From a virus (Duplodnaviria; Caudoviricetes): 64,000 bases of DNA. The position numbers and the translations under genes were made by a program. Position 1 is the stretch's first letter. Every line of letters begins with the position of its first letter. The stretch covers positions 8,983 through 72,982 of the IMG/VR virus record IMGVR_UViG_3300017492_000028. One strand, given 5' to 3'. Shown piece after piece: positions 7,712-40,102 of the stretch. Below the pieces are notes generated by a model, which worked only from the letters and a program-made list of their open reading frames with translations, made no database searches and was not told where the DNA came from.

Positions 7712-9637
7712 TTATAAATTTAATTGTTCTAGTATTCTTTGATATATTTCAAGTTTCTTATGTGTAAGCTCATCATAATCATTTCTTTCTTGATCGGTAG
7801 CATCAACTTTTTGCTTTTGTATTTCAGCTGCACGAAGTTTAGAATAAACAGAAGAATACTCTGGATATAATTCCATAACTGCTGCATCAGCTATATTTTC
7901 AATTTGAGCATTTATTTGTTCCATATTAACTTTACCACGAATACCGTCTGGACCAAATACTGATTTATTTGCTGCTTCAGCTGCATTTTGAATAATAAAA
8001 TCTTCATTAAGAAGTTTAAGAGCTTCTTCTCTATTTGGAAGTGGAACAATTCTACCAGTTTTGTTATTCTGATAAGCAAGAGCTATATCACCATTTGGTA
8101 ACTGTTGTGTAACGATTTTATTACCATTACTTAAATCATAATCATAATTATATGCCTCCATATTAGCAAGCTCTTTTTGTGCTTGGGTTTTTGTACTCAT
8201 TTCAAAGGCTTGTTGAGCTTCATCAGTCCAAAGACTAGGTATAAACAACATTACTGCATCTTCTTTTCCGTCACTAATATGCTTACCATTCATACCTGTA
8301 CGCTGGTCTTTATAAATCTTAATATAAGCACCACTTTTATCTCCAGACATACCAAGAAAACAATCAATGTTTTTTCCAAATGTTGACATATCATCTGTTT
8401 CACGTAATACAGAATCTTTTAAACGATTCAGCTCATGAAGTTTATCAGCATCTGTAATACGAGTTAATACTTGTTTGCCTGTATCATCATATTCAGCAGC
8501 CCATATTTCTTGGTTCTCAAGATTAATTCCACGTAATGCGCGTTTACGCATAGATGTATCTTTTTCAACACCTGTATCATCGCCTCGTAAATAACATTGC
8601 GCAGCATAAGCACTTGCAAACGGAATAAATGTACCACCAACAGTTATTTGAGTATCGTCATTAGGCGTTGTATATTTATTATAAACTTTTTTAGCTTCAT
8701 CTACCGTTTTATAGGCATTAAGAAATTCATCTTTTGTTCTGTCAGGAGTCATATACTGACTAAATGTTACAGTAGAAGTCATCATTTCACCTTTACTTAC
8801 ACGATTATCGTTTTCGTCTGTGCCATATAAGTTATAATGAACTCCTCTATCTTCAGCTTTCTTTAATGCTTGATAAACTTTATATACATTAGGGTTAGTT
8901 TTATCAAAATAAAGTTTAGTTTCACCATCAACTTTCTCAATTTTTACACCCATTTTTTGAAGTTCTTTCCAGCCATAGCCTGTAACAGTTTTAAATTGGT
9001 TATAATTAGATAAAGATTTAGTTTTATCATTTTGACCTGTAATATTATTCCAAATGCCTTCAGCTATACCTTTAATTGCTCCTACTGCTCCACCAATAAC
9101 TCCGCCAATAAGTGCTCCAGTACCTGTGCCTAATGCTGTACCAGCAGGTCCAACAGCTGTACCTACTGCACCTCCACCTATTGCTCCTATACCAGAACCA
9201 GCAGCAGCTCCCCAGCCTATATTATCCTTAATTCCTTGACCAATATTTGAAAGTTGTTCACCAAGACTTAACCCGTCAAAAGTAACAACAAATCCTGTAG
9301 CATCTTTACCTCCAGCTTTATTTATATTGTTAACAAACTGCTGTGTATAAATATTATTATTTGCATTTGGCAATAAAGGATTTGAATCAGTCATAGCACT
9401 GTAAAATGCAATAGCCTGCCGTTCATTAACATTAGCTCTAGACATTATCGCATCCCATTTACGCCCTGTAGATTGAAGTTCTTTAATCTTATTATTTAAG
9501 GCAGCTTGTGTATAATAGTCATCTGCATAAAAACCTTTTAAAGTATTGGCTAAACCAAAATAATCATGATTTTGTTTATATGTATTAAACATATAAAAAT
9601 CATTATTATTAAGTGTATTTATATTTCTTAAATCCAT
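7712..9637 (-). CDS. Virion cargo protein with glycine-zipper membrane segment
   Basis: 641 aa; GWGAAAGSGIGAIGGGAVGTAVGPAGTALGTGTGALIGGVIGGAVGAIKG; position in the cargo locus. Confidence 0.6.
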   Translation of the reverse strand: MDLRNINTLNNNDFYMFNTYKQNHDYFGLANTLKGFYADDYYTQAALNNKIKELQSTGRKWDAIMSRANVNERQAIAFYSAMTDSNPLLPNANNNIYTQQFVNNINKAGGKDATGFVVTFDGLSLGEQLSNIGQGIKDNIGWGAAAGSGIGAIGGGAVGTAVGPAGTALGTGTGALIGGVIGGAVGAIKGIAEGIWNNITGQNDKTKSLSNYNQFKTVTGYGWKELQKMGVKIEKVDGETKLYFDKTNPNVYKVYQALKKAEDRGVHYNLYGTDENDNRVSKGEMMTSTVTFSQYMTPDRTKDEFLNAYKTVDEAKKVYNKYTTPNDDTQITVGGTFIPFASAYAAQCYLRGDDTGVEKDTSMRKRALRGINLENQEIWAAEYDDTGKQVLTRITDADKLHELNRLKDSVLRETDDMSTFGKNIDCFLGMSGDKSGAYIKIYKDQRTGMNGKHISDGKEDAVMLFIPSLWTDEAQQAFEMSTKTQAQKELANMEAYNYDYDLSNGNKIVTQQLPNGDIALAYQNNKTGRIVPLPNREEALKLLNEDFIIQNAAEAANKSVFGPDGIRGKVNMEQINAQIENIADAAVMELYPEYSSVYSKLRAAEIQKQKVDATDQERNDYDELTHKKLEIYQRILEQLNL

Positions 9638-22952: not shown

Positions 22953-23249
22953 CTACTTGTGTTTAGTAACATATTCGTCTAATACTGATTTGCTCCATGA
23001 TAATTCTTTAAAACCAACATCTTTACGTCCTTTTGGTAGTTTACCGTCATGAACTAAATTATCAAATGTTGCTCTGCTTACATGCAAATATCTACATGCT
23101 TGTTCTTTACTTAGCCTTGTTGAAGTTATTTCATTAAGACAAGACAATATCATTTGTCCGTCAGCTTCACTAATTGTAGAATTGCCTGCATCTATATCAT
23201 CAACGAGTTTAGCAAGTATGTTACGAATTACATGTATCATTATACACAA
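22953..23249 (-). CDS. Small HTH DNA-binding protein (excisionase/AlpA-like)
   Basis: RLSKEQACRYLHVSRATFDNLVHDGKLPKGRK. Confidence 0.65.
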   Translation of the reverse strand: MCIMIHVIRNILAKLVDDIDAGNSTISEADGQMILSCLNEITSTRLSKEQACRYLHVSRATFDNLVHDGKLPKGRKDVGFKELSWSKSVLDEYVTKHK

Positions 23250-24103
23250 ATAGTATTAATCTCATCATCTGTTATAGCTACCATTGCATCAAGACTTGCC
23301 TGCAACTCTGCTTCAGCCGCTTTAGCACGAGCAATTTCTGCTGTCAAACTAGCATTCAAATTAGAAATATTAGTAGTATTGGTAGCAATATTAGTCTTAT
23401 TAGTTGCAATATTTGTTGCATTAGCACTTTCAGCAGCTTTAGCACGAGTTGTTTCAGTACTTATTGCGTCTGCATTAGTCTGCTCTGCTGCTTTAGCGCG
23501 TGTAACTTCGTCAGACAAATCAGAAGTAAGAGTATTCTCTGCCGTCTGTGCGCGAGTAGTCTCTGTTGAAATTGCAGTAGCATTTGTTGACTCTGCTGCT
23601 TTAGCACGAGTTACTTCATTATCAAGATTGGTCTGAACTGCTGCAATCTTATTAGTAATAGTAGATGCAAAATTCGCATCATCACCAAGTGCATCAGCCA
23701 ACTCTTTCAATGTATCAAGAGCCTCTGGGGCAGCACCAACCACGTTCTCAATAGCAGTAGTAACTTCAGTTTTTGTCTGATACTCACTGTCATTCTCAAG
23801 CTGAGAAACCTTAGTTACATTCTTAGCATTAGCCTCAATTCCGTCAAGTTTAGCCTTGTAAGCATCAGTAAAATCATTAGCAGAAAGAGCTTTTCCCTCT
23901 ACCTTATCAACTTTAGTTGCTTCAGCTGCTGTAGCACGAGTTTGCTCTGCTGCTATTGCATCAGAGTTCTTAGTCTCTGCTGTTGTAGCACGAGTAATCT
24001 CGTTACTGAGAGCTGTCGTAAGAGAGCTATTAAGATTAGATACCTGTGTTTTAATTAAATTCCAAAGGGTTTTAAGACCAGTTTCATTAAGATATTTAGC
24101 CAT
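23240..24103 (-). CDS. Tail fibre component, coiled-coil
   Basis: 287 aa; ExTRAxAAE repeats, APEALDTLKELADAL motif, shared N- and C-terminal modules. Confidence 0.7.
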   Translation of the reverse strand: MAKYLNETGLKTLWNLIKTQVSNLNSSLTTALSNEITRATTAETKNSDAIAAEQTRATAAEATKVDKVEGKALSANDFTDAYKAKLDGIEANAKNVTKVSQLENDSEYQTKTEVTTAIENVVGAAPEALDTLKELADALGDDANFASTITNKIAAVQTNLDNEVTRAKAAESTNATAISTETTRAQTAENTLTSDLSDEVTRAKAAEQTNADAISTETTRAKAAESANATNIATNKTNIATNTTNISNLNASLTAEIARAKAAEAELQASLDAMVAITDDEINTICV

Positions 24104-24136
24104 AATGATATTATTTTTAAATTGTTTATTATTAAT

Positions 24137-24721
24137 TTATTGACAAATTGTTATAACTTCCGCAGAAGATATTGCGGTAATTGCATTAATTTTAGCAGTA
24201 TTTGTATCTATACCATTTTGAAGTACCAAATGTTCAGCTGCTGCTGATAACTGTGTTTCAAAAATAGTATCACTTTGTTCTTTATTGTAATAATCTGCAA
24301 GGTCTATTTCAGACCTAAAATCACCAAGTTTCTCGTAATCATTAATTGTGTTAGAAGAACCATCACCACGATAAAGATACTCTGTATAGAGATTATTTTC
24401 ACTATCTGCGGTTTTAAGAAGATAAACCTTATTAGTATCTGGTTCATCCACAGGAATTGATGATACAACATTGAAAAGCTCTTTATTTACCAAATCAATG
24501 TTTTCTCCTGTTAACAAACTTTTTCCATTAATCGTTGCAATGTTGACATTATCAACAAGATTATCTTGCTTTGTTTCAGCAAGTGTTGCAATGTCATTTT
24601 CATTGGTTGTGATTTCACTACTAATTTCGTCAAACAACTTGCTTAGCTGATATTTTTGTGCATCACTAAGATTAATTGAATTAAGCTTGTTAAAAAAATA
24701 ACTTAAACTACTATTCTCCAT
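24137..24721 (-). CDS. Tail fibre-associated protein
   Basis: 194 aa; KQDNLVDNVNIATINGKSLL motif is also in the 1261-aa fibre; ends AISSAEVITIC. Confidence 0.55.
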   Translation of the reverse strand: MENSSLSYFFNKLNSINLSDAQKYQLSKLFDEISSEITTNENDIATLAETKQDNLVDNVNIATINGKSLLTGENIDLVNKELFNVVSSIPVDEPDTNKVYLLKTADSENNLYTEYLYRGDGSSNTINDYEKLGDFRSEIDLADYYNKEQSDTIFETQLSAAAEHLVLQNGIDTNTAKINAITAISSAEVITICQ

Positions 24722-25085
24722 TTTTTACAAGACTTTTATAATCTATATTATATTTCTTACATATAGGTTTAATAATCCAACTCCATGAAACAGGTGATAC
24801 AATAGATGAATTAAGAAGAACTAGCTTGTTTTCATAATCACCAATGTACAGGTAACATCCTGCTATAATTACTATACTGCATACAAGTAGCACACGTTTC
24901 GTAAAAGTTGAAACTACTTTTGCCCCATTAAGATAATCTACAATGTTAATCAATATATATGTTAATACATTTACTATTAAAATAAATGTAAAATCAAAAT
25001 TATTGAATACTTTTTGTATTATTTCATCTATCATAATTATGACTACTAAGTTGCCGCACAAACAGCCCGAACATATTTTACCCAA
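24711..25085 (-). CDS. Holin-like membrane protein
   Basis: 124 aa, about three hydrophobic segments, basic C-terminus. Confidence 0.45.
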   Translation of the reverse strand: MGKICSGCLCGNLVVIIMIDEIIQKVFNNFDFTFILIVNVLTYILINIVDYLNGAKVVSTFTKRVLLVCSIVIIAGCYLYIGDYENKLVLLNSSIVSPVSWSWIIKPICKKYNIDYKSLVKNGE

Positions 25086-25801
25086 TCTTTATTACCAGCA
25101 TATTGACCTGTAGAACCATTTGGTTCTAGTCGCCAAGCATACGCTGTATCAAATTGTGTTGATGACCAATAAGCCTCATTTGAAGCAATCTCTGTACCTC
25201 CAACAAGAGTAAGAGCACTGTTAAGGTCTGTTGAAAAACAATCCATACTATACAACTCTGTTATTGTTGGCAAATAACCATTCTTACCATTTGGAAACAC
25301 ATAGTTTTTACATTCATAAGCCGCATAACCGTCAGCAGAAGTTCCTTGCGCTGCAATGATTGCATCGGTATTAGCTTCTCCGGCAACATCATACGATCGT
25401 CTAGCCACAGTTACACTACCTGTAGCAGTACTATCATCATATATAGTTGTACAACCGTCTATTAATAATTTTCTACTTCCCCATGCTCTTTTTGTGCAAT
25501 CAGTTAATGCTACAATAAAAGCAAAATACGTAGTAGGAGTATAAGAAATTTCGTTATGTCCTCTAATGTCAACAACTGCAATTCCAACTACATTGTCATT
25601 ATTCGTTGTGTCCCATTCTGCTGGCTTAGTATAATTGCCGTCCATATCATAAACATAAACACCTCTAATTTTAGGATATTTAGTTCCATGATATTTATCA
25701 ATTTGTTCATCAACATACTCTTTAGTTACGCATATATCGGCTGCATAACCTTTTAGCTTACTCCAAAATGTTTCTACACCATGTTTATCTAAGTACTTCA
25801 T
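25046..25801 (-). CDS. Putative receptor-binding protein with C-type-lectin-fold (DUF1566/Lcl-like) C-terminus
   Basis: 251 aa; YLPTITEL...YWSSTQ...AWRL...VRAVC motifs; shared N-terminal module. Confidence 0.6.
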   Translation of the reverse strand: MKYLDKHGVETFWSKLKGYAADICVTKEYVDEQIDKYHGTKYPKIRGVYVYDMDGNYTKPAEWDTTNNDNVVGIAVVDIRGHNEISYTPTTYFAFIVALTDCTKRAWGSRKLLIDGCTTIYDDSTATGSVTVARRSYDVAGEANTDAIIAAQGTSADGYAAYECKNYVFPNGKNGYLPTITELYSMDCFSTDLNSALTLVGGTEIASNEAYWSSTQFDTAYAWRLEPNGSTGQYAGNKDWVKYVRAVCAAT

Positions 25802-25812
25802 GAATATATGTT

Positions 25813-25941
25813 TTAAGTTGTACTAGAATGATATTTGCTTATTTGCTCATCAACATAGTCTTTAGTAGCATAATTATTGTCAATAAACTCTTTTACTTTA
25901 GCCCAAAGAGTTGCAAGACCTTGTTCATCTAAATATTCCAT
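25813..25941 (-). CDS. 42-aa micropeptide made only of the fibre N-terminal module (not in the ORF track)
   Basis: MEYLDEQGLATLWAKVKEFIDNNYATKDYVDEQISKYHSSTT, closely paralogous to the N-terminus of the next gene; fills the intergenic gap. Confidence 0.75.
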   Translation of the reverse strand: MEYLDEQGLATLWAKVKEFIDNNYATKDYVDEQISKYHSSTT

Positions 25942-25957
25942 ATATATATATATTATA

Positions 25958-26572
25958 TTATATTTTCTTTATGCGAATATAGTCTATTTGCCCTATGGCA
26001 TATCTTTGCAAAGTACTACCGTCGCTGCCATAAGCAGCCCCAAGAACAATATTATTATCAAAGTTTATACTATGCTTATAAACAAGAGTATCATGACCCG
26101 TGTAACCAGTACTACAATTAAAATAAGATACATCACCTATTTTAGTCCATTTTACAATAAGTGGATAATAAGCTTCACCGTCATTATAATCAATACTAAT
26201 ATACTTTGTAGATTCATCAAAATTAAGCTCAACAGCATAATGCCCTGTACTTTCATTAGCTGCATAAGCTCTGCGAATGTTAATACCTGCATAAGCACCA
26301 CTTACTTCATTATACGCACTAAATATGGTAGAATAATCACCGTCGGCATTAGCATCAGGATCGAATCTCATAAGCATAGTACACTCAAAGTTTGGTGCGT
26401 CAGTAGCAAAAGGCTTAAACGGTACTTCTATTGCATTTGTTCCGTCAAACTCTAAACTATTGTTTTTATAGATTGTAGCACTTTCGCTTTCATCACTCAA
26501 TGTATAGTCTTGAATAGTAGTTTTAATCTTTGCCCATAGGGTATTTAAACCATGCTCATCTAAAAACTTCAT
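25958..26572 (-). CDS. Fibre-associated protein with LamG/concanavalin-like lectin domain
   Basis: 204 aa; LEFDGTNAIEVP...NIVLGAA...GQIDYIRI pattern; shared N-terminal module. Confidence 0.55.
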   Translation of the reverse strand: MKFLDEHGLNTLWAKIKTTIQDYTLSDESESATIYKNNSLEFDGTNAIEVPFKPFATDAPNFECTMLMRFDPDANADGDYSTIFSAYNEVSGAYAGINIRRAYAANESTGHYAVELNFDESTKYISIDYNDGEAYYPLIVKWTKIGDVSYFNCSTGYTGHDTLVYKHSINFDNNIVLGAAYGSDGSTLQRYAIGQIDYIRIKKI

Positions 26573-26943
26573 TTATCACATTTTAAATATATTATTAACG
26601 TTACAACCATTAATACAAAATAGCATATAACGTTCACTATCAAAAGTTCTAAATTTGATATTGGAATACCAATGTAATAATCATAATACGTAAGTATATT
26701 ATTTATTACAACATAATGCAGAAACATTCTGTGATATTCACAATATCTAAATACATAAGAACTAACATATAAGAATACCAAAGGTATAATACCTGTACCA
26801 CTAAGAATAGATATTAATTGACAATCAATATTAAAATAAGATAGAACCGTATTAATTGCATACGAAGTTGCCAATATAAAAGGCATTATTTTTAATAGTA
26901 TCAATTCTATTTTATATAATATTTTACTTTGTCTAACTTCCAT
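26569..26943 (-). CDS. Multi-pass membrane protein
   Basis: 124 aa with about four hydrophobic segments. Confidence 0.6.
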   Translation of the reverse strand: MEVRQSKILYKIELILLKIMPFILATSYAINTVLSYFNIDCQLISILSGTGIIPLVFLYVSSYVFRYCEYHRMFLHYVVINNILTYYDYYIGIPISNLELLIVNVICYFVLMVVTLIIYLKCDK

Positions 26944-27100
26944 ATCTAAATACTCTTCTTGTTTTGGTAACTCCTGCCTTTTGAACTACAGGGTTTGGTC
27001 TGCCATTTGGCTTATTCACAAATTTAATCGGTTCTCTTTTAGGACTATCTCTATTTGAAACAAATCCTTTTTTTACTAACTTAATTACTTTGTTAGGCAT
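26933..27100 (-). CDS. 55-aa basic peptide (not in the ORF track)
   Basis: MPNKVIKLVKKG...KAGVTKTRRVFRYGS; ATG abuts the stop of the 1261-aa gene; its stop overlaps the next start. Confidence 0.6.
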   Translation of the reverse strand: MPNKVIKLVKKGFVSNRDSPKREPIKFVNKPNGRPNPVVQKAGVTKTRRVFRYGS

Positions 27101-30100
27101 TTAATCTGTATCTTTTGTAAACCATGTTTCTGGATTATCTATTAAACCTTGAAATGTAGGTCTATCATTTTCAATACTAGCTACTATATCCCCATTAGCA
27201 TAATATATGTCATAATCACCCTTAATGGTATTTCCTTTATAAAAAGATGCACCATTGCAAAATACTAGATAGCAACTTGTATCTATTTCATACGGTACAA
27301 AGAAAGTACCATTTAATTCATATTGCTCAACACCGTCTTTACAATATACTAGTGATATGTTACTATAATATTGACCGCTAACATTAAGATTATTATCATT
27401 ATAATTACCTGTGGTTATAGTTGGCTGTTGCTTACTATAAAAACCATTTGCTAAATACGTAGGATAGCAACCATTATCTCCATTAACGGTATCTTGTCTA
27501 GTACATATTTTAGAAGTATAGGAACTATCTCCTGTATCATGCGCTGCAAAAATATAGAGATAACCTGCTGCTGTAGTTTTAAGGTTCATTAGTATAGCAT
27601 TTACATAAGCATTTAGAGTAACCGTTGAGTTTAGCGAGTTTATTGTATATATGGACGAGAATAAAGTGAAACTATAAGGTATAGTTTTATTTAATCCCGT
27701 CCATTTCTGAAAATTTACAATATACCAGCCTCCGTCATCAGGATTTTTCATTGCAAGCTGACAGCCACTACCAGTGGTAAAAAAGCCTGCTACAGTTTCT
27801 CCAGCAGAATTTTTAAATTTATACGCTAAACTATCTTCTGATATAGCTGTTTCACTTCCTGCATTAAGTGTAGTACTTATACTATTTGCAGTAACATTAC
27901 CTTCATTATCAACAATAAATTTGTCATTGTAATTAATACTACTATCACTACCAGTGTTTATAGCAATACCGTTTTCAGTGAGTGTTACATTGCCATATTG
28001 TGTACCTTTTTGAACACAAGCCGCAATTTTATTATCATACTGTGTAATACTACTCTGCGCGGTTGTAAGACCTTTTTCTGTAGCAGTTATACGAGTTTCA
28101 AAACTATTTGCAGTTTGGGTTAGCTTACTTACGCTACCTTTTACAGTAGTTACTTCACCTGTTAGATTATTATATTCAGTCTGCAAGCTAGCTACATTAG
28201 TACTGATTTCATTTGCTTTTTCACTAATACTACTGTAATTTTCTGATACTTCTGTAATTTTATCTGTATTAGTATCTACAGAAGTTTGCAACTCTTTTAC
28301 CTGTGTTTGTATTTTATTCGCTTGCTGTGTAATATTACTATAATTAGAAGTTAACGTTGCTACATTACCAGAAACTGTGTTTATACTACTTTGCATAGAT
28401 TTGCTAAATATTATAGCATTATCTATTACACTATTACTATAATTCGTTGATTCTGTAGTAAACGTTACATGGGCTGAATAAAGATGACTATCAACATTGA
28501 CTGATACATCATATCCGCCACTATTCATTGGAATAGTTAAGTCTATCTTATCACCACTCGAATTATAAGTACCGTCAGTAACAACCTGTGTAGGAACATT
28601 AGTAATTTCAATATATCCACAATAGTTATCACCAGAAGAATTTACAAACTTTGTTGAACAATTACTTTCATTGCTTATTGCAACATCACTATTGGCTATA
28701 CTCAGCAGTGTTGTTCCCTTATATGCAACAATATAACTACGTGCGTCATCAAGATCAGCTGAATAAACCCCCTCCGTTGCACCTGCTTCAAGTGGAAGAA
28801 CAAGGGATGTTGGTGAAATACCAATTACAAGCTGTTCAGAACCACTGTCCCCACTATTAGTAGCAGTTCCAGCAATCATCACAGCACTCATTGTTCCATA
28901 TAATGTAACAGTGGTATTATTACTAGCATCTTCTGCATAATAGGCTTCAACAGTAAAAGGAATCTCATAACTTCCAAGACTAAGACCACTATAAGGTTTA
29001 GCTGTTATACTGTCGCTAGTTGACGTTACATCAATATACTGTGTAGGCAATGAATCTGTGTCAACTGTAATGCTTTTTATAGTAGCATTGCTTACAGTAA
29101 CTGCATCATTGCTGTCAACAGTTGCACGACTAACAGTAATCTTGTTTTTCAAACTAGTTGGAGTAATACTTATGGTATCATCACTTTCAGTTTTTACAAA
29201 AACGGCTATTGGAGAACTCTGGTTAAGAGTAAATGAAGAAGTACTTGCTTCATTAGCACTATCAGCATCATCAATTCTTTGAGGAGAAGTCCAACCACTT
29301 ATTGTTCCGTCACTTTTTGCAATAGCAGTACTCATCCATACACCCTTGCTATAATCATCAACAACTTCATACCAACCTGTAGGATAAGTAACAGTTAGTG
29401 TAGTCCAATTAAAGCTTCCTCCTGTAGGAGTTGCAGGTTTAGTATCACTGTTACAGAAAGCAGTAATATTGACGTAAGCTGCTGCATCACCACCTGTATT
29501 CTTTCCGTCATAAGCATAACGAGTCCAAAGAGCAGCTTTTCCTGTATCAGCATTACCTTTAAAATTACCCCAAACACCGTCTGTTTGTTTTCTAAGACAA
29601 ACCCATTCATAGCAATTAGTTTCATCAACACCCTGTGGATTATCAGTCCAACCAGTAGGAACATAATCATCCTTGTTTACACTTGTTGGAATATTTGGTG
29701 CATCGTTGCTTGTAGTACGAGTAAATATATACTCAATACTATCACCGTCAGTACCTTGTTTTCCATAAACGCTCCACCTTGCTGGAGTTGACCAACTCCC
29801 CCAAGTTCCGTCTGTCTTTACTCTTTGGCATATCCACTCTACGGGGGAGCTTTCTGTAATCCCTTGCGCTCTATCAGTCCAACCTGTAGGAACAAAATCA
29901 TCAGTGTCTTCATTTTCTGTTGGAGTACTTACAACAGTATCATAACTGTTAACAAGTTTATAAATAAACTCATAGCCTTTTCCGTCAGTTCCTGCACTAC
30001 CCTCACCACCACTTGATGAGCCATCAACAGCAGTAATTCTTACAGGAGTTGACCAAGCAGTATTTTGCTTACCTGTTGTAATATTCCAATCAGCACTACT

Positions 30101-30886
30101 CATATAAGTAATCTTACCCTCAATATGAGTTAAATCCCAGCCACTTGGAGGAGTAAGAGTAGCGGTACTAGTATTGTAAGTACCCCCCGTAGGAGAAGTG
30201 ATTGTGTCATCAATAACACTTGAGACATTCTTATAAATAAACTTAGACACAATGACATCTACACTGCCAGCAGCAGTTCCCGGGTCGCCTTTATCTCCTT
30301 TATCACCCTTATCACCTTTGTCTCCTTTGTCTCCTTTGTTTCCTTTATCGCCTTTATCACCTTTATCACCCTTTGTTCCTTTTGCGCCTGCTGGAATACC
30401 AAATGAAAAATTCAGCGTATCATCGTTCATTGTTACATGCGCTTCGGCTGTACTTGCTTCATGAGCAGTAGCAACAGCTGATACATCGCCAAATTGCACA
30501 CCGTCTTTTCCAGCAGGAATTGCAAATTCAAAACTAAGTTTATTATCTTCTACATCAACATAAGCTGCTGCTTGTTCAGCACTAACAGCTGTTGCTTCAA
30601 CCTCAATATCACTAAGTTTAAATTTTGGAACTCCAATATTAAGGTCAATAGACTTTTTATCAGTTTTTGCAAAAGTACTTAGCTCATCACTTTCTTGTGC
30701 GGTAAAGTTTACTTGCACATCAGATAAATCTGTTTCGATAGCAATATCTCCACTACCTAAAATAGATTCTCCATTAATGGTCTTAATATTCTCACCAGAA
30801 ACAAGTTTATCTTGCTTCTTACTAAGTAGAACTTTTAGTTCTTCCCAAAAGACTTTAAGACCACATATATCTAATAACTTGACCAT
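27101..30886 (-). CDS. Long tail fibre with collagen-like segment
   Basis: 1261 aa; (GDK)n collagen run, repeated PTGWTD...EW.C.R...DG.WG and PTGG..N.TT.T.T.P.GW units, coiled coil, distinct C-terminal domain. Confidence 0.8.
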   Translation of the reverse strand: MVKLLDICGLKVFWEELKVLLSKKQDKLVSGENIKTINGESILGSGDIAIETDLSDVQVNFTAQESDELSTFAKTDKKSIDLNIGVPKFKLSDIEVEATAVSAEQAAAYVDVEDNKLSFEFAIPAGKDGVQFGDVSAVATAHEASTAEAHVTMNDDTLNFSFGIPAGAKGTKGDKGDKGDKGNKGDKGDKGDKGDKGDKGDPGTAAGSVDVIVSKFIYKNVSSVIDDTITSPTGGTYNTSTATLTPPSGWDLTHIEGKITYMSSADWNITTGKQNTAWSTPVRITAVDGSSSGGEGSAGTDGKGYEFIYKLVNSYDTVVSTPTENEDTDDFVPTGWTDRAQGITESSPVEWICQRVKTDGTWGSWSTPARWSVYGKQGTDGDSIEYIFTRTTSNDAPNIPTSVNKDDYVPTGWTDNPQGVDETNCYEWVCLRKQTDGVWGNFKGNADTGKAALWTRYAYDGKNTGGDAAAYVNITAFCNSDTKPATPTGGSFNWTTLTVTYPTGWYEVVDDYSKGVWMSTAIAKSDGTISGWTSPQRIDDADSANEASTSSFTLNQSSPIAVFVKTESDDTISITPTSLKNKITVSRATVDSNDAVTVSNATIKSITVDTDSLPTQYIDVTSTSDSITAKPYSGLSLGSYEIPFTVEAYYAEDASNNTTVTLYGTMSAVMIAGTATNSGDSGSEQLVIGISPTSLVLPLEAGATEGVYSADLDDARSYIVAYKGTTLLSIANSDVAISNESNCSTKFVNSSGDNYCGYIEITNVPTQVVTDGTYNSSGDKIDLTIPMNSGGYDVSVNVDSHLYSAHVTFTTESTNYSNSVIDNAIIFSKSMQSSINTVSGNVATLTSNYSNITQQANKIQTQVKELQTSVDTNTDKITEVSENYSSISEKANEISTNVASLQTEYNNLTGEVTTVKGSVSKLTQTANSFETRITATEKGLTTAQSSITQYDNKIAACVQKGTQYGNVTLTENGIAINTGSDSSINYNDKFIVDNEGNVTANSISTTLNAGSETAISEDSLAYKFKNSAGETVAGFFTTGSGCQLAMKNPDDGGWYIVNFQKWTGLNKTIPYSFTLFSSIYTINSLNSTVTLNAYVNAILMNLKTTAAGYLYIFAAHDTGDSSYTSKICTRQDTVNGDNGCYPTYLANGFYSKQQPTITTGNYNDNNLNVSGQYYSNISLVYCKDGVEQYELNGTFFVPYEIDTSCYLVFCNGASFYKGNTIKGDYDIYYANGDIVASIENDRPTFQGLIDNPETWFTKDTD
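30280..30390 (-). repeat. 9-bp tandem repeat encoding collagen-like Gly-Asp-Lys
   Basis: GAKGTKGDKGDKGDKGNKGDKGDKGDKGDKGDKGDPG. Confidence 0.9.
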
Positions 30887-30904
30887 AATATATATATATA
30901 TATA

Positions 30905-30997
30905 TTAGTTTGAACTTAACTTTTTATCAGCATACGCCTTTATTTTCTCGATGATTATCTTCAAATCATCATAATCTACAAATTCTGTCATAATCAT
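30905..30997 (-). CDS. 28-30-aa micropeptide resembling the fibre N-terminal module (not in the ORF track)
   Basis: (MI)MTEFVDYDDLKIIIEKIKAYADKKLSSN, between a terminator and the long fibre gene. Confidence 0.55.
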   Translation of the reverse strand: MIMTEFVDYDDLKIIIEKIKAYADKKLSSN

Positions 30998-31005
30998 AAA
31001 GTTTA

Positions 31006-31037
31006 AAACTAGGAGGAGAATTAACTCCACCTAGTTT
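31006..31037 (-). terminator. Rho-independent terminator after the 537-aa fibre gene
   Basis: AAACTAGGTGGAG-TTAATT-CTCCTCCTAGTTTT on the minus strand. Confidence 0.6.
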
Positions 31038-31043
31038 GATTGT

Positions 31044-32636
31044 TTAACCTAATATACTTGTACACAAACTCTCTATATCTGAAGTAGAAATTGCACTATC
31101 GGTAGTACCTGTATCGGTATCTTTTTCACAGTACAAAGTATAACTATTATTATCTACTTTAATTGTTGCTATCTTTGTTCCGCTAGTCAAGATAGGATTA
31201 ACAGTTACAGTAGAACCACCTAGATTATTTACGTCAATCTTATCCAACTTAGCCTTATCACTTGCGCTCATCAAACCAGCTGTTGAAGTAGTAGCTGCCG
31301 AATATGTGGTATCAGTAAACTTTGCATTAGCAGGAACACTTGCACCAAGAGTATAAGTACAAGCTACAGGAACTCCGTTTGCAAAATATACAGGCTGTGT
31401 AGCAGAACCAGCACTTGTACTAAGCTTACTTGCGGTAGTAGCAGTAGTGGCACTAGTAGCACTGGTTGCACTATCTGCACTACCAGCTTTAGTTGCGTAG
31501 CTTACACTTGTTGGGGTTGGAATAGTAACTTTAGAAGTTGAGCTATCACTACCCGTCAACGTAACTACTTGCCCGCTTATAGACAACTCATAAGTAGTAT
31601 TACCGTCACCGCCAGCTGCACTAGTAATCTCACTTACTTTATTATCTACATAAGATTTTGTAGCATAAATTGGAGTATAAATCGTATGTGCTGTACCGTC
31701 AACCGTAATGATAGCAATAGAATCTCCGCTATTATATTCTGTTGCAACACTTACGATTGAACCGCTATTACCACTACTTGGAGCAGACGGCATTACTACA
31801 GTAATATCTGTTCCAGCAACAGTTGCAATAGTATGACTAGACCCAAATGAAAGTGTTGCGTTTTTGTTAGTAACACTTACAGAAGTTGTACCACTACTAC
31901 TACCTCCGCTTATTGTACCATAAGTAAATACTATCTTACCTGTTGAACTATCAATACTAACACCAGTTATTGCGTTGCCACTGCCACTAGTAGTTACATT
32001 AGATATTTCAACATAATCTGATAAATCACTAGTTTTTGCATAACTTGACAAATCACTAGTTTTTGCATAAGCCGCTAAATCTGTAAGTTTTGCATATCCA
32101 CTAAGGTCAACCGTTCCACCACTACTTGCACTTGCAACAGCTGAATCAACATAAGATTTAGTGGCAATAGTACTCGTATCAACGCTTATAGTGGTACCAC
32201 TAATGCTTATACCTGTGCCAGCACTATATGTAATAGGTTCAGAACTGCTTGTACCAGGAGTATATCCAAGTGCATCAATTATAGCGCTCTTAGTAAGAGT
32301 ATAACTATATGTACAACTAATCTTTCTATTGGATATGCTTATATAATTACCTGCTGTATAGGTAGCTTGTGCTGTAGTAGCATAAGTACTACTAGCAGTA
32401 CTCTTAGTAAGATATATACTACTTGCATCAGTTTTAGTAAGATACGTACTTGATGCAGCAGATGTAGTAAGATAACTATTGAGTTTAGTAGTTAAATCTG
32501 TAGTAGTAACATAGGTATTAGCTATTGTTTTACTAAGATTATTAATTTTGGTATCTACCTCATCACTTTGGTCACCAAACTTATCTACGATTTTAGACCA
32601 AAGAGTATTAAGACCATTAATATCTAAATATTCCAT
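31044..32636 (-). CDS. Ser/Thr-rich tail fibre protein (start moved to MEYLD at 32636)
   Basis: TDTTYSAATTSTAGLMSASDKAKLD and GSATQPVYF motifs, 8-aa YAKTSDLS repeats, shared N- and C-terminal modules. Confidence 0.75.
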   Translation of the reverse strand: MEYLDINGLNTLWSKIVDKFGDQSDEVDTKINNLSKTIANTYVTTTDLTTKLNSYLTTSAASSTYLTKTDASSIYLTKSTASSTYATTAQATYTAGNYISISNRKISCTYSYTLTKSAIIDALGYTPGTSSSEPITYSAGTGISISGTTISVDTSTIATKSYVDSAVASASSGGTVDLSGYAKLTDLAAYAKTSDLSSYAKTSDLSDYVEISNVTTSGSGNAITGVSIDSSTGKIVFTYGTISGGSSSGTTSVSVTNKNATLSFGSSHTIATVAGTDITVVMPSAPSSGNSGSIVSVATEYNSGDSIAIITVDGTAHTIYTPIYATKSYVDNKVSEITSAAGGDGNTTYELSISGQVVTLTGSDSSTSKVTIPTPTSVSYATKAGSADSATSATSATTATTASKLSTSAGSATQPVYFANGVPVACTYTLGASVPANAKFTDTTYSAATTSTAGLMSASDKAKLDKIDVNNLGGSTVTVNPILTSGTKIATIKVDNNSYTLYCEKDTDTGTTDSAISTSDIESLCTSILG

Positions 32637-32647
32637 GGTATTAAACT

Positions 32648-33295
32648 TTAAACACAAATTTTATCTATTTGATCATTGGTAATAGGAGTGTCGGGATTAG
32701 CAATATAAATATAAGTACTTCCACTCCAGCGATAACTATAGTTGGTGTCTTTAGCTATATATATTTTACCTGTTTCTCCTGTTGCAGGAAAATCATTAAG
32801 AGTATCATATTCCAACACGTCATCAACATAAGAAGGAAGTTGAGAAGAAGGAACTTTACCTGACCCGTCAAGACTTGCAACTCCGTTAGCTTGCCCAACA
32901 GAACTCTTATCAACCTTTTTATCAAGAGCTGCTTGTGTAGCAGTTGATATAGGCTTGTCAAGGTCCGATGTATTATCTACGTTACCAAGACCAACATCAC
33001 CCTTTGTAATAGTTACGTTGCCGTCAAGTGCATGACCATTAATTGTAGTGGTCTTGTCAACTTTCTTATCAAGAGCAGCTTGTACTTTATCACTTATAGG
33101 TGCGTCTTTTGAAGAAACATTATCAACATTGCCCAAACCAACATCAGCTTTAGTAAGAACAGGATTCTCACTAATCTTATATCCGTTGATAGTATAATTA
33201 TCAATAGTTTTCTTCAAGTTTGCAATACATTCTGCTATATACTTTTTAATTTTACTCCAAAAGTATATAACACCATCATAGTTTAAATACTCCAT
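32648..33295 (-). CDS. Tail fibre protein with TKxDVGLGNVDN repeats
   Basis: 215 aa; TKADVGLGNVDNVS and TKGDVGLGNVDNTSD; VASLDGSGKVPSSQLP. Confidence 0.75.
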   Translation of the reverse strand: MEYLNYDGVIYFWSKIKKYIAECIANLKKTIDNYTINGYKISENPVLTKADVGLGNVDNVSSKDAPISDKVQAALDKKVDKTTTINGHALDGNVTITKGDVGLGNVDNTSDLDKPISTATQAALDKKVDKSSVGQANGVASLDGSGKVPSSQLPSYVDDVLEYDTLNDFPATGETGKIYIAKDTNYSYRWSGSTYIYIANPDTPITNDQIDKICV

Positions 33296-34002
33296 TATTC
33301 CTTACTTATTATTTGTTCAACAATCTCTTTTCTAATAGGAAAATCACACTCGCAATCATGGTGGTGATGATGATGAGAATGAATATCATGATGATGCCTA
33401 TAAAAATCTAACAAATATTTAATTTGCTCATCAGTTAATTCCTGTTTTTCATCATCAGTGTTGCTATCAGAATCACTGCCAGTGTCAGTGTCTGTAGTAG
33501 TATCATCCGTAGTGTCATCTTTCTTATCTTCTAACTCTTTAATTGGGTCACTCATTATACGCCATAAATCACCAAGATCTATAAGTCCTGGTTCATCACA
33601 GCAATGAGGATGATGATGATGTTCATAACAAGGTATTGGGTCTGGTACACCAGGAGTAAGACAAGGATGTTCTTCATGTACAGGACAATCCTTAAATTCT
33701 CTACCTTCGTACCATGCTTTACTTACGCAATGACGCTTGCCTAAAAGAATCTCATCAAGCATAATCCTCGGTATAGGCTTAGCTTCAAGTTTACCGTCTA
33801 TAAAACAAGCAGTAGGAAGCCAATATCTATCATCAGTAATATCTATGCCAGCAGGCACAGGCTTTCTTGATATATAAGTCCTAAAATGTATAGGGTCAAA
33901 CTTGTATGTAACAACACAAAGTCTGTTATAGGAATTACGTTTATCCCAATAACCCTCCACAGTAGGAGAAACTTTACCAAGATTTTCAATCTGTAGTTTC
34001 AT
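33295..34002 (-). CDS. Tail hub/fibre-attachment protein with His/Cys-rich C-terminus
   Basis: 235 aa; NLGKVSPTVEGYWD...ISRKPVPAGIDITDDRYW resembles crAss fibre-hub N-termini; HHHH tracts. Confidence 0.55.
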   Translation of the reverse strand: MKLQIENLGKVSPTVEGYWDKRNSYNRLCVVTYKFDPIHFRTYISRKPVPAGIDITDDRYWLPTACFIDGKLEAKPIPRIMLDEILLGKRHCVSKAWYEGREFKDCPVHEEHPCLTPGVPDPIPCYEHHHHPHCCDEPGLIDLGDLWRIMSDPIKELEDKKDDTTDDTTTDTDTGSDSDSNTDDEKQELTDEQIKYLLDFYRHHHDIHSHHHHHHDCECDFPIRKEIVEQIISKE

Positions 34003-38626: not shown

Positions 38627-40102
38627 TTAGAGTACACACTTTAATTGGAACATCTTGGTTGCATTGTTTACCTGCAAACCATAAGAGTTCATAATCTCAT
38701 AAGCACTTGCATCAACACGAGTAGAAATAGAAAGCTGCGGAACAGCACCCCAAGAAGCAGGTATATCAGCAAGTCCTTTATAAATACCTACCTTATAAAT
38801 CTTACCCTTTAGACGAACCTTACGAACATTACGCTGTCCCTCATAAGTACTCATATCAATCAAAAATGCTTGATGTGAAGTAATAGGCAAACCTGTACGA
38901 GGATGTATCATACCATTAGCTTTAGCATTTTCTGCTATAGTTCCGTGGTCAAGGAAAGGAAGTGCTTTTACAGTAATGGTATGACCGTCAACAGTCTTAT
39001 AACGACGGAAATACTTACCATAAGAAAGACCACCCTCAAAATCCTCAATCATCTTATCGCCAAGCGGAGTAGCAAAACCCTCTGAACGAGCATCGTTACG
39101 CATAGCCATATCAAAGTCCTGCATAAAGCCTTTACCACCCATGAGAACAACCTCCATTGAACCTGTATCAGTATCCTTATTAAGAACATCACCTACAGTA
39201 CGCTCAATCTTGTTAAGAGTAAGAACTTCTCCATAAGTATCGTAATTGCTTTCACGACATATCTCCATCATACCTGCAGTATGAGGAATTGGTTTACCAT
39301 TATCAACATCCTGAAGAATTATCTCACCATTCTCTGTACGGTTATATTCAGCAAGCCACAGACGCTCCTCATCCATAACACGCTTAGTAATATCAAATTG
39401 ACGCATTTCCTCATTAATCCAAAGATTGGTTGTACCACCACCTTTAGTCTTAAACTGATACGTTACAACTTGATTAGCAAGGTCACCACCAATCTCTTTA
39501 GAATAACGATGAAGTTCAAGCTGTGAGGTCATCTTTCCAGGACCCATAACATTACTTCTATTACCCTTAGAATAAGACTGTGATACAGTAGGAGCAGTCA
39601 TACTCCAATACTTACCCTTTTTAAGATTATCAAGGTCGCAATAAAGATTAGGATTAGGAGATGTAAGTTTAAGACGATAAACATAACCGCCATGAGTACC
39701 CTCACCAAGATCTTTCATAATACGTACCTGCGTATGTCCGTCTGGAGCTATCAAACCATACTGCTCAATAAGCCAATGAGTAGCAAACTCAACATCAAAC
39801 ATAGCACCACCTTTACCAGGTGTCTTATTACTCTCATCTACCCACAGAACATAATCATTAAACTTCATACGTCCCATAGTTTTCCAAGTCCACTGAACCT
39901 TGTCAATATCAACAACTCCAGCAGTACCTTGACCCTCTGTCAAGAATGTAAGCGGAAACCTGTCATCATCCATACCATAAGTATAGGTAAGAATGTTATT
40001 AATTTCCGCAGGTTTTTGAAGCATAAGATGAGCAAGAGTCTCTTCATTAGAATAGCCTCTATCATCATATTGCCCACGTGAAATTTCTCTAAGTTTGTAC
40101 AT
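38627..40102 (-). CDS. Major capsid protein
   Basis: 491 aa; size, position after portal and scaffold-like genes, crAss MCP-like sequence (DDRFPLTFLTEG, YGLIAPDG, ELHRYSK). Confidence 0.85.
   Translation of the reverse strand: MYKLREISRGQYDDRGYSNEETLAHLMLQKPAEINNILTYTYGMDDDRFPLTFLTEGQGTAGVVDIDKVQWTWKTMGRMKFNDYVLWVDESNKTPGKGGAMFDVEFATHWLIEQYGLIAPDGHTQVRIMKDLGEGTHGGYVYRLKLTSPNPNLYCDLDNLKKGKYWSMTAPTVSQSYSKGNRSNVMGPGKMTSQLELHRYSKEIGGDLANQVVTYQFKTKGGGTTNLWINEEMRQFDITKRVMDEERLWLAEYNRTENGEIILQDVDNGKPIPHTAGMMEICRESNYDTYGEVLTLNKIERTVGDVLNKDTDTGSMEVVLMGGKGFMQDFDMAMRNDARSEGFATPLGDKMIEDFEGGLSYGKYFRRYKTVDGHTITVKALPFLDHGTIAENAKANGMIHPRTGLPITSHQAFLIDMSTYEGQRNVRKVRLKGKIYKVGIYKGLADIPASWGAVPQLSISTRVDASAYEIMNSYGLQVNNATKMFQLKCVL

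Follow-up and report, generated by a model that had tools for sequence, protein, structure and literature searches.

Paired terminal motifs as the probable halves of an end-to-end connector for trimeric phage fibre proteins

The long tail fibre of phage T4 consists of the separate trimers gp34, gp35, gp36 and gp37, which are joined end to end, C-end to N-end, with the receptor-binding part last. Each of these joints is specific to its own protein pair, and to our knowledge no portable sequence motif shared by thousands of proteins occurs at the T4 joints. The closest parallel to the system described here comes from the Klebsiella phages KP32 and K11, whose secondary receptor-binding proteins (RBPs) carry a conserved N-terminal peptide (PMC13579863); this short peptide, with a small helix, joins an exchangeable second RBP to an internal T4gp10-like domain of the virion-anchored first one, the structural parts being conserved and the tips exchanged horizontally. 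In crAss001, cryo-electron microscopy (cryo-EM) showed residues 1–26 of gp22 docked in the tail hub, with further fibre proteins hanging on gp22 by a mode of attachment that was not resolved there (PMC10172136). Here we describe the fibre cluster of a crAss-like phage from the IMG/VR record IMGVR_UViG_3300017492_000028, of which we analysed 64,000 nucleotides (nt), positions 8,983 to 72,982 (hereafter the window, numbered from its first letter). Seven reading frames of this cluster begin with a short motif, the N-module (consensus YLDxxGLxxLWxKIK), and four end in another, the C-module (consensus AITxxEIxxIC). Comparison of many such loci leads us to propose that the two motifs probably make up, one half each, a non-covalent connector by which trimeric phage fibre proteins are joined end to end.

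All late genes of the window lie on the minus strand, and the proteins of the fibre cluster are called here the anchor, F1 to F5, P6 and F7 (Table 1). A previous inspection of the same DNA, the sequence-only reading, had listed the N-module at the starts of six genes and the C-module at the ends of four. When its regular expressions were run over the six-frame translation of the window, the N-module gave seven matches, all on the minus strand, and each at the start of an open reading frame (ORF), 2–14 residues past a stop and at an initiator Met (gene starts 33295, 32636, 30886, 26572, 25801 and 24103, together with a 42-residue (42-aa) ORF at 25813-25941). The C-module gave four matches, each 1–5 residues ahead of a stop. 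In shuffled copies of the window (n=300) the mean number of matches was 0.0 for the N-module and 0.01 for the C-module, and the motif observation is confirmed as real and highly non-random. All six gene starts and all four gene ends were recovered, the 42-aa ORF being a new, seventh N-module carrier, and the putative receptor-binding proteins F3, F4 and F5 indeed have the N-module only. The seven DNA copies of the N-module are 62–80% identical across 45 nt, with no long exact match, and their conserved residues use varied codons, so that selection seems to act mainly on the peptide. The rest of the parent record, a 72,982-bp IMG/VR virus contig, holds no N-module.

The likeness to KP32 and K11 is functional and does not come from a sequence comparison, the N-module of the window being about 20 residues long, present on seven ORFs and predicted to be helical. 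The partner of the Klebsiella peptide is an internal domain, whereas here it would be a C-terminal motif of about 12–45 residues; and, unlike the Klebsiella joint, the one proposed here would be end-to-end and iterable (anchor, F1, F2, F3), in phages of many phyla and morphotypes. Pfam and PHROG scans of the fibre proteins and anchor of the window gave no gp10-like branching domain, although a divergent one could escape such scans; Gp10_C was found only as a tip domain on proteins of other loci that carry the N-module alone (N-only proteins). The likeness to crAss001 gp22 lies in the trimeric fibre of a crAss-like phage, docked in a hub by its N-terminus, but the anchor and fibres of the window have no sequence similarity to gp21–gp26, and a tblastn search of crAss001 gp20–gp45 against the window matched the portal only. 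The T4 fibre resembles the arrangement proposed here in its separate trimers joined end to end. In siphoviruses the tail-tip trimer Tal (PF06605) carries the central fibre; classical Tals are single long polypeptides without modules, in contrast to the split form described below, a Tal N-domain with a C-module followed by an N-module fibre gene. The docking domains of polyketide synthases and non-ribosomal peptide synthetases offer an analogy, since they too are short complementary C- and N-terminal helices that order separate subunits, and partner classes are hinted at here as well. They differ in their unrelated proteins, oligomeric state and function, and the carriers here are all phage virion proteins, not megasynthase subunits.

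It is clear from a wider survey that the two modules are terminal and meet at gene junctions. A degenerate DNA pattern for the N-module found at least 117 IMG/VR contigs of 7–170 kb and 84 stretches in one-per-species genome contigs, bacterial and archaeal. A Met lies no more than 6 residues upstream of the N-module at 172 of 184 sites in the IMG/VR loci and at 110 of 120 in the genome contigs, and none of the 184 IMG/VR sites falls inside a long ORF. Of 126 closed ORFs with the strict C-module pattern, 111 have it no more than 8 residues from the stop. Where a same-strand upstream ORF was present in the IMG/VR loci, 136 of 175 N-module ORFs (78%) lay directly behind an ORF ending in a C-module, and several of the 39 'misses' are visible C-modules that escape the regular expression; the background of such endings among ORFs of at least 80 aa in the same loci is 194 of 3,294 (5.9%). 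The independent set of genome contigs gave 88 of 105 (84%) against a background of 139 of 2,240 (6.2%). In the reverse direction, 169 of 191 C-module ORFs (88%) have an N-module start within about 120 nt downstream, a figure that errs on the high side, as the N-module served to fetch the loci. Most N-motifs have their first residue 5–40 nt from the upstream stop, in any frame.

The carriers belong to Bacteroidota, Bacillota, Actinomycetota, Spirochaetota, Fibrobacterota, Chloroflexota, Saccharibacteria and others, and include one Methanobrevibacter metagenome-assembled genome (MAG). Across these phyla the modules flank very different central domains, and the N-module peptide is kept in hosts that differ widely in base composition. 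Searched against 1.84 billion representative proteins, a profile built from 34 junction constructs matched 2,480 at E≤1e-3 and 162 at E≤1e-10, and in nearly all of the best 150 of the 2,480 the N-module starts at residue 1–3. Framing the pair as a trait of one phage, as the sequence-only reading did, was therefore too narrow, the pair being very widespread in phages. Neither module matched a family in Pfam or NCBIfam; profile searches of the PDB gave best E values of 1.6 (N-module) and 0.19 (C-module), both spurious, and a sequence search there with F1 gave nothing meaningful. PHROG 24985, a family of 70 positions and of unknown function, spans the C-terminal 45 or so residues of two Tals. The searched literature held no account of the pair, and matches to the motif strings were frog dermaseptins only. 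The concept of anchors, adaptors and branched or end-to-end fibre proteins is already known; the apparent novelty is an iterable connector pair, defined by sequence and spread across phyla, which Pfam, NCBIfam, PDB sequences and the searched literature all lack.

Proteins carrying the C-module alone are most commonly short siphovirus tail-tip proteins (PF06605 Prophage_tail, 390–470 aa), which match positions 10–400 of a PHROG profile of roughly 1,000 positions. Named phages with homologous Tal domains have single long Tals of 490–939 aa, and no internal modules were found in those of Javan422, Gardnerella vB_Gva_AB1 and NatCom_34192. A similar split is seen in a crAss-like setting, in locus L113, whose gene order of portal, gp21-like head fibre and a 149-aa protein mirrors that of crAss001. 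The 149-aa protein (768-1217) is 41% identical to residues 1–137 of crAss001 gp22 (E 6e-30) and ends in a C-module, and an N-module gene comes next; crAss001 gp22 is a single 832-aa tailspike with neither module. This gp22-like anchor domain is present in L113 and not in the window.

The window provides the third case. Its major capsid protein (38627-40102) is 83–85% identical to those of the crAss-like phages ctcc615 and cr271_1 (Intestiviridae). The first fibre is one long protein in ctcc615, cr271_1 and R. jaberico (911, 468 and 1,499 aa, respectively), encoded next after a conserved 249-aa gene, and in the window the anchor domain stands directly after the 249-aa gene, in the same gene order. 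The N-terminal domain of the anchor, about 63 aa, is common to the first fibre protein of related Intestiviridae, residues 1–63 being 55% identical to the N-terminus of the 911-aa ctcc615 fibre (E 5e-18). Neither module is present in ctcc615, cr271_1 or R. jaberico. The module system is present in L005, the closest of 20 IMG/VR relatives of the 249-aa gene, and the other 19 are without both modules; together with the named relatives, this indicates that the system is not a family trait of Intestiviridae. The fibre genes of L005 comprise three with both modules, one N-only and two small N-module relics (13579, 13891), and the C-half of its anchor contains four tandem units of a Cys cluster (CxC) followed by a C-like helix. 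Compared with their relatives, L005 and the window thus seem to have the first fibre reduced to an anchor domain, with a series of N-module genes behind it. Judged by sequence, therefore, three unrelated virion anchors are either fused covalently to a fibre or cut, with a C-module (only C-like on the window anchor) in front of an N-module gene, and no other argument speaks as strongly for the pair as a non-covalent replacement of a peptide bond.

The C-half of the window anchor (residues ~125–220) has dense His/Cys clusters, runs of 4–6 His beside CC or CxC, each followed by a short amphipathic helix; they may form knots, held by metal or disulfides, on the axis of the trimer. A CxC immediately ahead of the C-module was also seen in the unrelated loci L141 and L222.

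N-only proteins of other loci end in T4 Gp10_C, Phage Tail Collar, tail tip, GDSL esterase or alpha-L-fucosidase domains. The two modules were found fused in one protein, P0038 (195 aa, L235 1724-2311), which consists of an N-module, a small domain, a C-module, a 12-residue linker and a second N-module; two independent run assemblies encode it under table 11. This fusion shows the natural place of the two modules to be side by side, in that order. It is the one case among the best 150 of the 2,480 profile matches, a rarity that points to the split state as the rule; the fetched loci, with 184 and 120 N-module sites and 126 C-module sites, gave no fusion of a C-module to an N-module.

Among 168 distinct junction pairs, the N-module behind an E-[IL]-E C-module is of the G-[LV]-L-Y kind in 29 of 40 cases; behind other C-modules it is so in 5 of 128 (Fisher p 1.4e-18). 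The G-[LV]-L-Y class follows a base protein without an N-module by 33 to 1, and its bearers themselves end in the E-I-D kind of C-module. The window fits these classes: F1, the first protein after the anchor, is alone in having a G-V-I-Y-F-W core, which resembles the class following base proteins elsewhere. The partner classes are suggestive of an ordered assembly, and do not amount to proof of contact.

Structure predictions were made as single-chain folds. For the minimal adaptor P0138 (98 aa, alignment of 49 rows), the mean predicted local distance difference test (pLDDT) score was 77.8 and the predicted template-modelling (pTM) score 0.49. The model has an N-module helix at residues 6–21, a flexible linker, a four-stranded beta domain at 38–77 (pLDDT about 90) and a C-module helix at 89–97, so that both modules are predicted to be helical. 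Fold searches with this model gave weak matches, the best to Geobacillus virus E2 ORF18 (Z 5.6), others to the collagen XV trimerisation domain (Z 4.3, root-mean-square deviation 1.6 over 42 residues) and, in Foldseek, to residues 1–38 of crAss001 gp21 (7qof_l, E 1.5, TM 0.50). One member of the family matches PF11133 Phage_head_fibr (phi29 gp8.5) with E 1.8e-9. A beta domain of about 45 residues (Y-K-Y-K-G-S ... G-D-V-Y ... Y-A-W-x-G-x-x-W-D-x-L-G) precedes the C-module in most two-module proteins, that of F1 lying at 32690-32800, and the crAss001 head fibre gp21 begins with a similar motif.

In the connector that we consider probable, the C-module would be a short C-terminal helix, often behind the small conserved beta domain, at a virion-bound protein's or fibre segment's distal end, and the N-module, an amphipathic helix 2–5 residues past the initiator Met, would make up the proximal end of the protein that follows. 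Attachment of the assembly to the tail would fall to the 235-aa anchor, F1 would plug into the C-terminal helix of the anchor, F2 into F1 and F3 into F2. This chain, anchor-F1-F2-F3, is the most likely one, and P6 to F7 would make a second. F3, since it has no C-module, would be a chain terminator or tip. The N-only F3, F4 and F5 may serve as alternative receptor-binding tips that give mixed or branched fibres, with F4, F5 and perhaps the 42-aa ORF occupying C-modules left free by the gene order; the N-modules of F2 and F4 have an identical G-L-N-T-L-W core and could compete for one socket. The small N-module ORFs at 25813-25941 and 30905-31030 point to cassette replacement at or just after the N-module, as docking predicts for exchangeable tips. 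Comparative genomics supports the docking core well, and from it we infer physical binding, a 3:3 geometry and the assignment of tips to C-modules; branching is possible, and is inferred in the same way.

Several points weigh against this connector. The window has no 1:1 balance, with six N-modules (seven with the 42-aa ORF) against five C-type ends, so that placing them all needs competition or extra sockets in the internal helices of the anchor, and the tail of the anchor is itself only C-like, departing from the C-module consensus. The C-module of F7 has no downstream partner gene, because a helix-turn-helix gene and not an N-module gene comes next. A joint that simply continued the chain linearly would sit oddly with fusions as rare as those found, and the fetching bias already mentioned lowers the worth of the 88% coupling. 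Covariation was tried as a contact test and rejected, since junction partners (0.066 bit per column pair) and the two ends of the same protein (0.058) are similar in excess mutual information, and the signal thus reflects lineage and not contact. Finally, at the P6-F7 junction a 33-nt A/T-rich spacer (24104-24139) with no further stops separates the TAA stop of P6 from the ATG of F7, and the two are in one frame; 33 junctions in other loci are in frame in the same way. The read-through P6-F7 junction, folded with these as a paired alignment (34 rows), gave a poor model (pLDDT 62, pTM 0.29) with no compact C/N hairpin, which neither supports nor refutes docking. The sequence-only interpretation is partly supported: its claim that the C-module of one subunit partners the N-module of the next keeps good backing in the junction coupling of 78–88% against 6% in two collections, the strict terminal placement, the split anchors, the tip domains on N-only proteins and the one natural fusion; the low-confidence P6-F7 model is the part that did not help it.

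The same observations can be read in other ways. All N-modules might bind one site on the tail or anchor, with the C-module acting only in cis as a trimer cap or folding nucleus and the adjacency of the genes reflecting the order of a paralogue operon. The anchors of the window and L005 would offer possible sockets for this in their two to four tandem C-like helices beside CxC/His clusters, the weak resemblance of the beta domain to trimerisation domains such as that of collagen XV would suit a cap, the unequal N and C counts would be expected, and crAss001 fibres do dock their N-termini into 12 tail hubs (PMC10172136). We consider such a common socket unlikely, since it leaves unexplained why Tal, gp22-like and other base proteins carry a C-module exactly when an N-module gene is next and their fused homologues do not, why the tips lack the 'cap', and why the junction coupling is reciprocal at 84–88%.

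Two further readings give the modules no lasting contact with each other. Short terminal helices are typical chaperone handles, and many fibres require dedicated chaperones, so that the modules could be recognition tags, read by a shared chaperone or serving to order assembly, and be apart in the finished virion; small conserved membrane or unknown proteins within the cluster (26569-26943 and 24711-25085) can be counted on this side. This is very unlikely, because no conserved candidate chaperone gene accompanies the modules across crAss-like podoviruses and Tal-bearing siphoviruses, and tags need not meet at gene junctions. The junction sequences might instead be kept mainly as homology patches for swapping fibre cassettes, with no direct protein-protein role, as the N-module relics in the intergenic gaps of the window and L005 and the recurrence of the modules around very different central domains in many phyla would allow. 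The low identity and varied codons of the N-module DNA copies in the window speak against it, however, and peptide-level conservation across differing base composition and the fixed position relative to Met and stop indicate selection on proteins. As the main reason for the modules it is highly improbable; as a secondary consequence it is compatible with docking.

The end-to-end connector may also be read more boldly, as a universal and portable plug-and-socket standard of podoviruses and siphoviruses (Bacteroidota, Bacillota, Actinomycetota, Spirochaetota and a methanogen MAG contig), in which at least two orthogonal partner classes, base to first segment and segment to tip, set the order of assembly and the tips compete for each socket. 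We regard this as conceivable, with somewhat less than an even chance of holding; it would amount to a natural, modular means of switching host range that the family databases have missed. If the docking pair itself is real, thousands of unannotated phage genes would become readable, an N-module start marking a fibre segment or tip, a C-module end a socket, and the gene order the order in which a fibre is built. This would improve the prediction of RBPs and host range in gut viromes, most of whose phages have not been cultured, those of the crAss-like group among them, and would explain several specificities on one virion. It would also supply a natural sequence-defined joint for exchanging tips in the laboratory, as is already done with the conserved-peptide system of Klebsiella phages, and a concrete hypothesis on the attachment of those outer fibres that are unresolved in crAss-like virions. 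The gp22-like split anchor of L113 lends itself well to a test of the joint against the tail hub solved for crAss001.

Table 1. Fibre cluster of the window and the related anchor of L005 (window positions unless another locus is named).
Feature	Length	Position	Strand	Description
Fibre cluster		23240-34002	−	head genes on one side; on the other a cassette, then tail and RNA-polymerase genes
Anchor	235 aa	33295..34002	−	no N-module; last 12 residues a divergent C-like module (helix)
F1	215 aa	32648..33295	−	N-module 33245-33289; GNVDN-type fibre repeats; small beta domain; C-module 32654-32686
F2	530 aa	31044..32636	−	N-module 32586-32630; Ser/Thr/Ala-rich shaft; C-module 31062-31094 plus 5 residues
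Short ORF, F2-F3 gap		30905..31030	−	decayed N-module without the invariant G and W
F3	1261 aa	27101..30886	−	N-module 30833-30877; collagen-like GDK repeats; long coiled coil; large distal domain
F4	204 aa	25958..26572	−	N-module 26522-26566 and globular domain; no C-module
42-aa ORF, stand-alone, intact	42 aa	25813..25941	−	N-module 25891-25935 and about 20 residues
F5	251 aa	25046..25801	−	N-module 25751-25795 and globular domain; no C-module; phrog_4245
P6	194 aa	24137..24721	−	degenerate N-like start only; C-module 24143-24175 at end
F7	287 aa	23240..24103	−	N-module 24050-24094; Ala-rich repeat coiled coil; C-module 23246-23278
L005 anchor	202 aa	L005 10731-11339		44% identity to the window anchor

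The fibre region gave no megablast match among 50,697 phage records. The start of F1 overlaps the stop of the anchor, and F1 matches minor-tail and tail-fibre repeat PHROGs. F7 has many tail-fibre PHROG matches and contains, at 23388-24005, 54-nt (18-residue) repeats rich in Ala, Glu and Thr (D3–D8). F3 matches Collagen and coiled-coil families in Pfam. Among the putative tips, F4 has language-model atlas neighbours that include Laminin_G_3 clusters (score 0.95), and those of F5 are DUF1566/Lcl_C-like; both are leads only. F4 is a candidate lectin-type tip and F5 a candidate tip. The labels 'LamG-like' and 'lectin-like' given earlier to such proteins find an echo in these neighbours, but Pfam finds nothing to match them.

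The short ORF between F2 and F3 looks like a relic of a replaced gene head. The 42-aa ORF copies the first 40 or so residues of F5, not those of the upstream F4, and DNA repeats D2 and D13 link it to 25679-25801; it is either what a replaced tip left behind or a cap without a tip. Ten 9-nt tandem units at 30270-30398 encode the collagen-like GDK stretch near the N-terminus of F3, and their number could vary by slippage. Runs of (AT)n/(TA)n at 30887-30905 and 25942-25957 adjoin the start codons of F3 and the 42-aa ORF. Scattered between the fibre genes are two 124-aa multi-pass membrane proteins (26569-26943 and 24711-25085), perhaps holin-like or exclusion proteins; in ctcc615, cr271_1, R. jaberico and L005 homologues close the fibre cluster.

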